DNA of 64,000 bases from a virus. The DNA lies in IMG/VR virus record IMGVR_UViG_3300042305_002088, positions 1 through 64,000 of that record; one strand, given 5' to 3'. Position numbers and translations under genes: made by a program. The notes below the pieces were generated by a model that was not told where the DNA came from, made no database searches, and saw only the letters and a program-made list of their open reading frames with translations. Shown in pieces: positions 5,525 through 6,671 of this stretch. Within the stretch, counting starts at the first letter, position 1. The number at the start of each line of letters is the position of its first letter.

Positions 5525-5596
5525 GCTCTTATAGTTCAAAGGTTAGAACGGTCTGTTTATAACGGACGAATCTTGGTTCAAGTCCAAGTAGGAGCA
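5525..5596 (+). tRNA. tRNA-Ile(TAT)
   Basis: GCTCTTA/TAGGAGC acceptor stem, GTCTG-TTTATAA-CGGAC anticodon arm, CTTGG-TTCAAGT-CCAAG T arm. Confidence 0.88.
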
Positions 5597-6267
5597 GTTC
5601 TTAGGTAGCGCACCAATTTCCGAAAATGAACATCTGCAGCAAACTCAGGAGTACCTAATTTATGTTCAATAATAACATAATTGATATAACCACACTCTTC
5701 AATTGCTTTATACCTTAAATTGTCCCGATGTTTAATTTTATTAAGTAAACTAACACCAGCTATAGGTTTCCAGTGCCATGCACCGTTCCAATGTATAGCT
5801 ATTTTATAATCTGGTAAAATTATATCTGCATCAAAGCCATTAAACATTTTTTTATTTGTAATAATTTTTAATCCGTGATTGATAAGTTTTTGAGATAATA
5901 TTTTTTCGCCTTTACTTCGACTATTTCTTCTTTGCCATAAACCACCAAGTCGTTTTTCAGTCTCAATATTCACTCTTCTCTTTAATTCATTTCTACACTC
6001 TATACCACACATTGATACTCTAGAATATTTTTCATGATAAAATTTTTTATTGCAAATTTTACAAGTTTTAACAAAGACGTCGTTCTCTTTTGGAAATTTT
6101 CGCCCAATAAGATCAGCTCTTTTTTTAAGTGTTTCACTCTTTTTTAATTTAGTTAGTAAGGTTTGCGGACCTCTTTTAAGATTATTAAATATAGCAGAAC
6201 AAGTTTGAGAGCAAAATTTCTTACCATATTTACTGGCAATAATTTTATTGCAATTTATACAATTCAT
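5578..6267 (-). CDS. free-standing putative homing endonuclease: zinc-ribbon repeats plus a Vsr/DUF559-like nuclease domain
   Basis: CxxC...FCSxxC repeats; SKGEKIL...DADIILPDYKIAIHWNGAWH. Start 6267 follows a minus-strand TAAATA at 6273-6278. Confidence 0.75.
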   Translation of the reverse strand: MNCINCNKIIASKYGKKFCSQTCSAIFNNLKRGPQTLLTKLKKSETLKKRADLIGRKFPKENDVFVKTCKICNKKFYHEKYSRVSMCGIECRNELKRRVNIETEKRLGGLWQRRNSRSKGEKILSQKLINHGLKIITNKKMFNGFDADIILPDYKIAIHWNGAWHWKPIAGVSLLNKIKHRDNLRYKAIEECGYINYVIIEHKLGTPEFAADVHFRKLVRYLRTAPTWT

Positions 6268-6353
6268 ATTATTATTTAATGAGGCCATATAAAGGTTCAA
6301 GTACGTTCTTTGATAAAAATTTAATGGGGTGGTAGCTCAATGGTTAGAGCAGT

Positions 6354-6405
6354 TAAAGCTGGCTGCTTTGTATCGTGAGATACATTGTTTACAATATTAA
6401 AGTTG
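6354..6405 (+). ncRNA. 52-nt coreless group I-like mini-intron at tRNA position 28/29
   Basis: IGS AGCTGGCTGCTTT (6357-6369) pairs across the ligated junction AGAGCAGT|CGGCT with U.G at the 5' splice site; P2 TGTATC-GTGA-GATACA; ends in G6405; no P3-P8. Confidence 0.8.
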
Positions 6406-6413
6406 CGGCTCAT

Positions 6414-6625
6414 AATATTGTGACTTTATAGAGGGATCTATAATGAAAACTGGATGAATTCAGTGAAAGCCTAATAGGTCAACACTGAGCCAAGCTAAAG
6501 ATACATCTTTAGAAGGTGCAGAGACTACTGGAGAGGTTTAGTCCTCTTAATAACCAGAATTAGCGTCCGGCAACTCAAGTAGTTGAAGATATAGTCCACG
6601 GAGTTTGGTAACAAACACAAACGTA
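6414..6625 (+). ncRNA. 212-nt group I intron without an ORF at tRNA position 36/37; terminal nucleotide is A
   Basis: P1 TCAT/GTGA, P2 with GGGA loop, P3 CTGGATG/CGTCCGG, P4 TCAGTG/CACTGA, P7 GACTA/TAGTC, P8 CAACT/AGTTG, P9 GTTTG-GTAA-CAAAC, P9.0 ACG/CGT. Confidence 0.92.
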
Positions 6626-6671
6626 AATCGATTGGTTGTCGGTTCGAATCCGACCCGCCCCACCACTTTTC

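Follow-up and report, generated by a model that had tools for sequence, protein, structure and literature searches.

A tRNA(CAU) group I intron ending in adenine: a natural variant of the Azoarcus-type introns that is predicted to splice

The window, by which we mean the whole 64,000-nucleotide stretch analysed here (positions 1 to 64,000 of IMG/VR virus record IMGVR_UViG_3300042305_002088), contains an interrupted tRNA(CAU) gene that sits within a tRNA cluster of this 103-kb record. A group I intron was identified there with Rfam (RF00028, 6402-6618, 89.9 bits where the gathering score is 50, E 1e-21, model positions 1-253). ARAGORN called no tRNA around the intron at the unspliced locus. The gene was delimited using intronless homologues from viral contigs (L003, L004, L006, L007, L013 and L009), which were retrieved with the 5' half of the flanking tRNA as query. 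One of these, L009, is syntenic, and its downstream tRNA order matches that of the window. Relative to the homologues, the window gene carries two inserts, one of 52 nt that ends in G (6354-6405) and one of 212 nt that holds the ribozyme core. The latter is placed at 6414-6625 because the homologues read ...AGCAGT/CGGCTCAT/AATCGATTGG. Joining 6326-6353, 6406-6413 and 6626-6665 gives a canonical 76-nt tRNA(CAU) (ARAGORN), and no tRNA was predicted from joins that retain the mini-insert or omit exon 2. Both the homologues and the cloverleaf place the insertion site of the large intron in the anticodon loop, after position 36. The features of the gene, all on the + strand, are as follows.

6326-6353, + strand: exon 1, tRNA(CAU) positions 1-28; equals the 5' part of the intronless homologues, and its acceptor and D arms appear in the cloverleaf that ARAGORN draws for the joined sequence
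6354-6405, + strand: coreless mini-intron of 52 nt, last nucleotide G6405; missing from the intronless homologues
6406-6413, + strand: exon 2, CGGCTCAT, tRNA positions 29-36 with anticodon CAU; from the intronless homologues and the cloverleaf, with the U6413.G6420 wobble
6410-6423, + strand: P1, TCAT(A) 6410-6414 with (T)GTGA 6419-6423, 5' splice site after U6413; from the Rfam alignment, U.G in 22/22
6414-6625, + strand: Azoarcus-type (IC3) group I intron of 212 nt at tRNA position 36/37; from RF00028 and covariation
6521-6527, + strand: P7 5' strand, in which G6523 is the G of the G-binding pair; six P7 pairs invariant in 22/22
6528-6557, + strand: P7.1/P7.2-like two-helix insert between P7 and P3'; both helices covary
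6592-6597, + strand: P7 3' strand, in which C6596 is the C of the G-binding pair; from the alignment and homology to the 205-nt intron
6598-6600, + strand: P9.0 5' strand, ACG, in J7/9; its second nucleotide covaries with the first tail nucleotide in 100/100 relatives
6603-6616, + strand: P9 hairpin, GTTTG with CAAAC, loop GTAA; four of five pairs changed on both sides, and present in the minimum-free-energy fold
6622-6624, + strand: P9.0 3' strand, CGT; from covariation and the minimum-free-energy fold
6625, + strand: omega, the last intron nucleotide, A; from the intronless homologues and the fixed spacing from the covarying P9.0 pair
6626-6665, + strand: exon 3, tRNA positions 37-76 with CCA encoded; from the intronless homologues and the joined-exon cloverleaf

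Directly upstream of the interrupted tRNA, at 5578-6300 of the window on the - strand, is a 240-aa ORF with a weak match to Vsr-type endonucleases (PF03852, E 0.002, below the curated cut-off). This ORF may encode a free-standing homing nuclease. In the intron-bearing relative L012 a different tRNA occupies its place.

The large insert can be drawn in four registers because AAT occurs at both of its ends. Its last nucleotide is then A, A, A or T, and never G. Only one of the registers places U6413 opposite G6420, as fits P1, and this wobble is found in 22/22 aligned relatives. The initial annotation had placed the last intron nucleotide at A6625 and the start of exon 3 at A6626. Both positions stand: the intronless homologues and the P9.0 spacing set the boundary, none of the tRNA-restoring registers has a final G, and the three-exon join from A6626 is the canonical 76-nt tRNA(CAU). 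We considered G6623 as the intron end. It would yield either a 9-nt anticodon loop or a CUA anticodon, and we reject it given the conservation of P1 and P9.0. Thus the terminal guanosine of Azoarcus-type IC3 introns is missing, with A6625 in every tRNA-restoring register, and for that reason we file this intron as a variant rather than as an ordinary member of the type.

The 3' boundary is tied to P9.0, which the initial annotation had drawn as ACG 6598-6600 with CGT 6622-6624. The helix is real, since 100/100 full-length relatives have a Watson-Crick pair at its middle position, C6599-G6623 (54 C-G, 45 G-C and 1 A-U). These relatives are distinct full-length tRNA introns with the J7/9-P9-ACAAAC architecture, obtained from a scan of prokaryote genomes, one per species, and a single metagenome scan. 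In every one of them, the nucleotide two positions past P7 is paired with the one immediately following ACAAAC, omega lies two nucleotides later, and the exon that follows starts with AA. Given that the covarying pair in the window is C6599-G6623 and that the intron ends two nucleotides later, omega is A6625. The pair G6600-C6622 is invariant among the 100 relatives, but both of its letters are fixed by the search patterns and it is not independent evidence. The pair A6598-T6624 occurs in 19/19 omega-A rows and 0/3 omega-G rows of alignment A1, the 22-sequence alignment made up of these rows. P9.0 is part of the minimum-free-energy fold, although the z-score of that fold (-0.41) is no better than for shuffled sequence; taken alone, the three base pairs of P9.0 could be chance.

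The remainder of the ribozyme is well conserved in structure. Across the 63 pairs of the 22-sequence alignment, 95.5% of cells are paired, compared to 32-39% when the partners are slid, and none of 500 shuffles reached as high a value. Changes on both sides were identified in 26/63 pairs among the 22 relatives. The phage rows with omega-A, taken alone, are 100% paired and include eight compensatory pairs, and the Fibrobacteraceae rows with omega-A include ten. These compensatory changes arose after the A was fixed and point to continued selection on the ribozyme fold. Both helices of the insert between P7 and P3' also covary (CTGG/CCAG versus GCGG/CCGC, and AGAGG/CCTCT versus AGCAG/CTGCT).

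P7 consists of GACTA 6523-6527 paired with TAGTC 6592-6596, plus G6521-C6597. The G-site pair, G6523-C6596, had been described as canonical in the initial annotation; we find it invariant in the 22 sequences and homologous to a pair of known function. Its counterparts in the 205-nt homologue are intron nucleotides 129 and 176, and in Azoarcus G129-C176 is the G pocket, the guanosine-binding pair in cryo-EM structures (PMC13168695). A compensating change in the core was sought within the clade to which the window intron belongs. There P7 is invariant, and omega is the sole intron column that divides A-ending from G-ending introns.

Omega-A is encoded in six distinct phage sequences of two tRNA types. 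The initial annotation had proposed checking the terminal A in homologues, and it is present in close ones: L012, L282, L285, L292 and L295 (the closest, at 97%) have the window's own tRNA with both inserts and the GTA tail. A further locus, L284, is apparently the same contig as L012, judged by length and sample. Both inserts and the GTA tail are also present in a different tRNA(CAU) in L256 and L259. Close relatives that end in G include L271, with a GAG tail and a mini-intron, and L279 (GAG) and L289 (GCG), which are without a mini-intron. In L285 the acceptor stem reads GGAGTGG (tRNA position 3), with an A facing C70 as a result of either polymorphism or misassembly. Partial core matches only, and no homologous tRNA intron, were found among the INPHARED phages.

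The same ending occurs in bacterial chromosomes. The Fibrobacter loci L142, L154 and L202 have the ...ACGGAG...ACGUA/AA ending of the window. Of 151 Fibrobacteraceae species genomes searched, 24 contain the intron, and the GTA end is present in 24/24, down to 79% identity. This search of the 151 genomes used a DNA query; the Fibrobacteraceae loci are L142, L154, L202 and L296-L319. The RF00028 family search gave no match in three Fibrobacteraceae genomes (G001-G003) that do hold introns, and thus RF00028 family tallies by that genome search can miss the clade. Intronless Fibrobacteraceae alleles read GGACTCAT/AACCCGC, which fixes the boundary there too. In three intron-bearing genomes the CAU tRNA matches, besides the interrupted gene, are the initiator type and one other (loop-plus-T-arm pattern), and a pattern search of these three found no intronless copy of the interrupted gene. 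For this reason the interrupted gene is probably needed; the sole-copy argument is a soft one, as genome completeness is not stated and three of the Fibrobacteraceae genomes are metagenome bins. One genome, G082, has an intronless copy beside the intron-bearing one. In the Fibrobacteraceae host tRNA(CAU) an A31.C39 mismatch lies at the base of the anticodon stem, both in intronless (L320-L323) and in intron-bearing (L296-L319) alleles.

Other tails that lack a terminal G were identified, namely CGT in L252 and others and CTA in L210. These are 3' fragments without the 5' half of the core, and we dropped them as evidence. Lake metagenome contigs L252, L258, L266, L269, L270 and L276, as well as L210, contain the intron 3' end and the 3' half of a Polynucleobacter-like tRNA, with no 5' core. 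The L252-type and L210 loci resemble remnants or duplicates of tRNA 3' segments and are perhaps integration-site repeats. A search for omega-A introns in initiator tRNAs with the pattern AACGTAAAYCCGNAGGT returned 25 chance matches and no intron.

In a tree of the introns built with the tail removed, all omega-A introns fall in one clade (support 99) that also has eight G-ending members. The G-ending L271, L279 and L289 are nested within the phage group (support 95). Three changes of omega state are needed on this tree, and at least two are forced by well-supported branches. The insert of ~30 nt is present in 25/25 omega-A introns and in every member of the clade, and in 0/28 Azoarcus-type omega-G introns; conversely, an A end occurs in 0/28 Azoarcus-type introns without the insert. 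We infer that the insert-bearing core is a permissive background for omega-A.

Comparison with described systems shows how much of the Azoarcus-type organisation is retained. The window intron and the Azoarcus-type introns share a tRNA(CAU) host with insertion after U36 of CAU, a P1 with a U.G wobble, the J6/7-P7 and J8/7-P7 sequences GAGACUA / AUAGUCC with the G-C pocket pair, and the J7/9-P9-ACAAAC tail architecture in which omega is two nucleotides after the P9.0 pair. Unlike them, the window intron ends in A (tail GUA instead of C-N-G), has the P9.0 middle pair flipped to C-G, and carries the two-helix insert of ~30 nt between P7 and P3'. The window phage gene differs further in having a second, coreless mini-intron at tRNA position 28/29. 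The Fibrobacteraceae tRNA(CAU) introns have the same ACGGAG...ACGUA/AA ending, P7.1/P7.2-like insert and insertion site as the window intron and group with it in the well-supported clade, but they are located in a bacterial chromosome, lack the mini-intron and have longer P5 and P8 regions. To our knowledge, they have not been described as omega-A introns.

A group I intron with a terminal A has been made in Tetrahymena. In experiments attributed to Michel et al. in 1989 and to Been and Perrotta in 1991, changing the terminal G to A (G414A) reportedly impaired the second step strongly, and the A is said to have been accepted only after the G-C pocket (G264-C311) was changed to A-U. The window intron differs from that engineered one in being natural and conserved and in having a canonical G-C pocket. 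The Tetrahymena result is the chief obstacle to reading omega-A here as functional.

Reviews and recent work treat the terminal G as conserved and required. Among 5,292 bacterial tRNA group I introns with exon-anchored calls, U(-1)/G(omega) accounts for 98.5% of calls, and the remainder comprises 72 introns with C at -1 and four errors, with no A-ending class (Williams, 2020, bioRxiv 10.1101/2020.01.27.920355). The 72 introns, Leu.3Cg of tRNA-Leu, resemble the window intron as a natural and recurrent breach of a 'universal' splice-site rule that was inferred from exon regularity. In Leu.3Cg the breach is at the 5' site and omega-G is kept, whereas the window intron keeps U at -1 and departs at omega. 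Our literature search, in which many subscription papers were out of scope, found no report of a natural non-G omega; absence of such a report is therefore unproven.

The homologues of the mini-intron in L256 and L271 also end in G, so that a terminal G is conserved in three mini-intron lineages (window type, L256 and L271). A hairpin at 6384-6387/6392-6395 shows a compensatory change in L012. The putative guide, GCTGCTTT (6362-6369), forms a helix with nucleotides 6346-6353 of exon 1 that puts U6353.G6362 at the cut; this guide is invariant in the three lineages and hence has no covariation support. The first four nucleotides of exon 2, CGGC (6406-6409), are a possible partner for GCTG 6358-6361. 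A second hairpin, 6370-6383, has the GNRA loop GUGA, which is GCGA in L012. A search for further mini-introns with the pattern TAGAGCAGT..GCTGCT mainly matched ordinary tRNA anticodon arms and was set aside.

A helix of ten pairs, 6389-6398 / 6414-6423, links the mini-intron's 3' portion with the beginning of the main intron and masks the main guide sequence. Compensatory changes in it were identified in L256 (A-U to G-C) and L271 (U-A to C-G), and in L292 and L295 a wobble is replaced by a Watson-Crick pair (U.G to C-G). Since this helix competes with both the mini-intron hairpin 6384-6395 and P1, it is likely a switch that forces the mini-intron out first.

The initial annotation had suggested a different role for omega-A: a weak terminal nucleotide would let G6405 of the mini-intron use the G site first and would block the joining of exon 1 directly to exon 3. 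As the reason for omega-A that suggestion lacks support, given that the two traits are uncoupled: the Fibrobacteraceae have the A without a mini-intron, and L271 has a mini-intron with omega-G. L279 and L289 have neither. As omega-A is uncoupled from the mini-intron and a separate ordering helix exists, omega-A is better read as inherited. At most, it was co-opted for the two-intron gene. Reduced demand for the G site could bring a secondary benefit, or could have served as a pre-adaptation permitting the coreless mini-intron to arise.

We consider it probable, if well short of certain, that this is a genuine and selectively maintained IC3 intron ending in A, with omega-A inherited in the insert-bearing sub-clade and not a device for the two-intron layout. 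That omega-A evolved, or was kept, in the window gene as an ordering device, leaving the pocket for G6405 and preventing exon 1-exon 3 joining, is unlikely. The logic is coherent, in that a coreless mini-intron must be excised before the core departs and all three mini-intron lineages keep the terminal G; most of the mini-intron genes found are omega-A (window type and L256), and the phage clade on the tree is compatible with an omega-A ancestor. Yet 24 Fibrobacteraceae species have omega-A with no mini-intron to order, L271 pairs a mini-intron with omega-G, and helix 6389-6398/6414-6423 already offers an independent ordering device. A decaying pseudogene, in which a G-to-A change killed the second step and left no functional product, seems to us decidedly unlikely. 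Omega-G is regarded in the literature as essential, and fragments with non-G tails do exist (CGT in L252 and others, CTA in L210), all of them without the 5' half of the core. The omega-A genes, however, are all full length with every helix intact, compensatory changes have occurred inside omega-A lineages, the A is fixed in 24 species though a single transition would revert it, and a search of three genomes turned up no other copy of the interrupted tRNA.

Alternatively, the ribozyme might carry out only the first step, with the 3' site opened by hydrolysis or a protein and the anticodon loop sealed by an RNA ligase. In its favour, T4-type RNA ligase, of T4-like phages, joins 3'-OH and 5'-phosphate ends in nicked anticodon loops. 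However, 3'-site hydrolysis of group I introns also depends on omega binding, and Fibrobacteraceae, in which a phage ligase of this kind is not expected, conserve the same ending; we regard this route as highly improbable. Scarcely credible, finally, is a shifted register with cuts after C6411 (C at -1) and G6623 (omega-G), which would produce an amber suppressor with anticodon CUA. This join is accepted as a cloverleaf (anticodon cta), C at -1 has a natural precedent in the 72 Leu.3Cg introns, and the scoring scheme of Williams (2020, bioRxiv 10.1101/2020.01.27.920355), enumerated here from its description, prefers this register. Against it, U6413.G6420 is present in 22/22 sequences, and the omega-G relatives L271, L279 and L289 share the wobble in a P1 that is otherwise near-identical. 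G6623 corresponds in 100/100 relatives to the covarying P9.0 partner and not to the nucleotide two further on. In addition, phages and Fibrobacteraceae alike have CAU as the anticodon of their intronless alleles, retention of a suppressor in 24 bacterial species is implausible, and the long ORFs of the window are intact under the standard bacterial code.

If the preferred reading of an inherited, functional omega-A is correct, splicing may proceed as follows. The first step would be canonical. The three-pair P9.0 (ACG/CGU) might then act as a ruler while the anticodon stem holds the two exon strands together and a short P10 forms (AAU with AUU). Together, P9.0, exon pairing and P10 could set the distance such that A6625 is pushed into the unchanged pocket. 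Read from the sequences, P10 comprises only 2-3 pairs in phages and ~1 pair in Fibrobacteraceae, which counts against this reading. Binding of A6625 would presumably be weaker than that of G, perhaps as protonated A+ on the Hoogsteen face of G6523, and ligation probably slower, yet adequate for a stable tRNA. Because A6625, A6626 and A6627 are all adenines, base identity cannot define the splice site, and fidelity would depend on P9.0 and exon pairing alone, a second difficulty for this reading. A weak omega may also limit hydrolysis at the 3' site, circularisation and reverse splicing, and leave the G site less contested. This last effect might incidentally benefit the mini-intron upstream, whose terminal G6405 would have to use the same pocket.

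By this reasoning from conserved sequence and structure, the A-ending intron is best described as a natural variant of the Azoarcus-type IC3 introns for which splicing is predicted, and exon ligation is likewise predicted for the omega-A introns as a group. A more speculative proposal, possible though doubtful, is that omega-A is adaptive. The insert-bearing core would have a relaxed or altered pocket that, with its G-C pair unchanged, admits A in the second step (perhaps in the form A+ or assisted by the insert), making splicing effectively irreversible and leaving the pocket free. One core might thus serve both the G-ending 52-nt mini-intron and the A-ending intron.

The terminal G is regarded as a defining feature of group I introns and as mechanistically required; in the second step it shares the pocket with the free G cofactor. 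A natural, conserved clade of A-ending introns whose G-C pocket is unaltered provides a test system for separating base recognition from helical positioning in the choice of 3' splice site and in catalysis. It is also suited to asking whether a weak omega keeps reverse splicing, hydrolysis and circularisation in check, and how one core can serve two introns. For annotation, mapping rules that demand a terminal G would misplace omega-A splice sites. The scheme of Williams (2020), as enumerated here, would annotate the omega-A genes of Fibrobacteraceae and these phages as CUA suppressor tRNAs or as errors.

Related cores are also present in other phages. The crAss-like gut phages L375 (~1400-2300) and L376 (1391-1650) encode a group I core that contains a P7.1/P7.2-type insert, and the strand opposite the core carries an endonuclease ORF. 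They were rejected as homologues: the core and insert are related, but the context differs from that of the window tRNA. The L376 intron adjoins RAGATH-7-assoc and RAGATH-9 RNAs.
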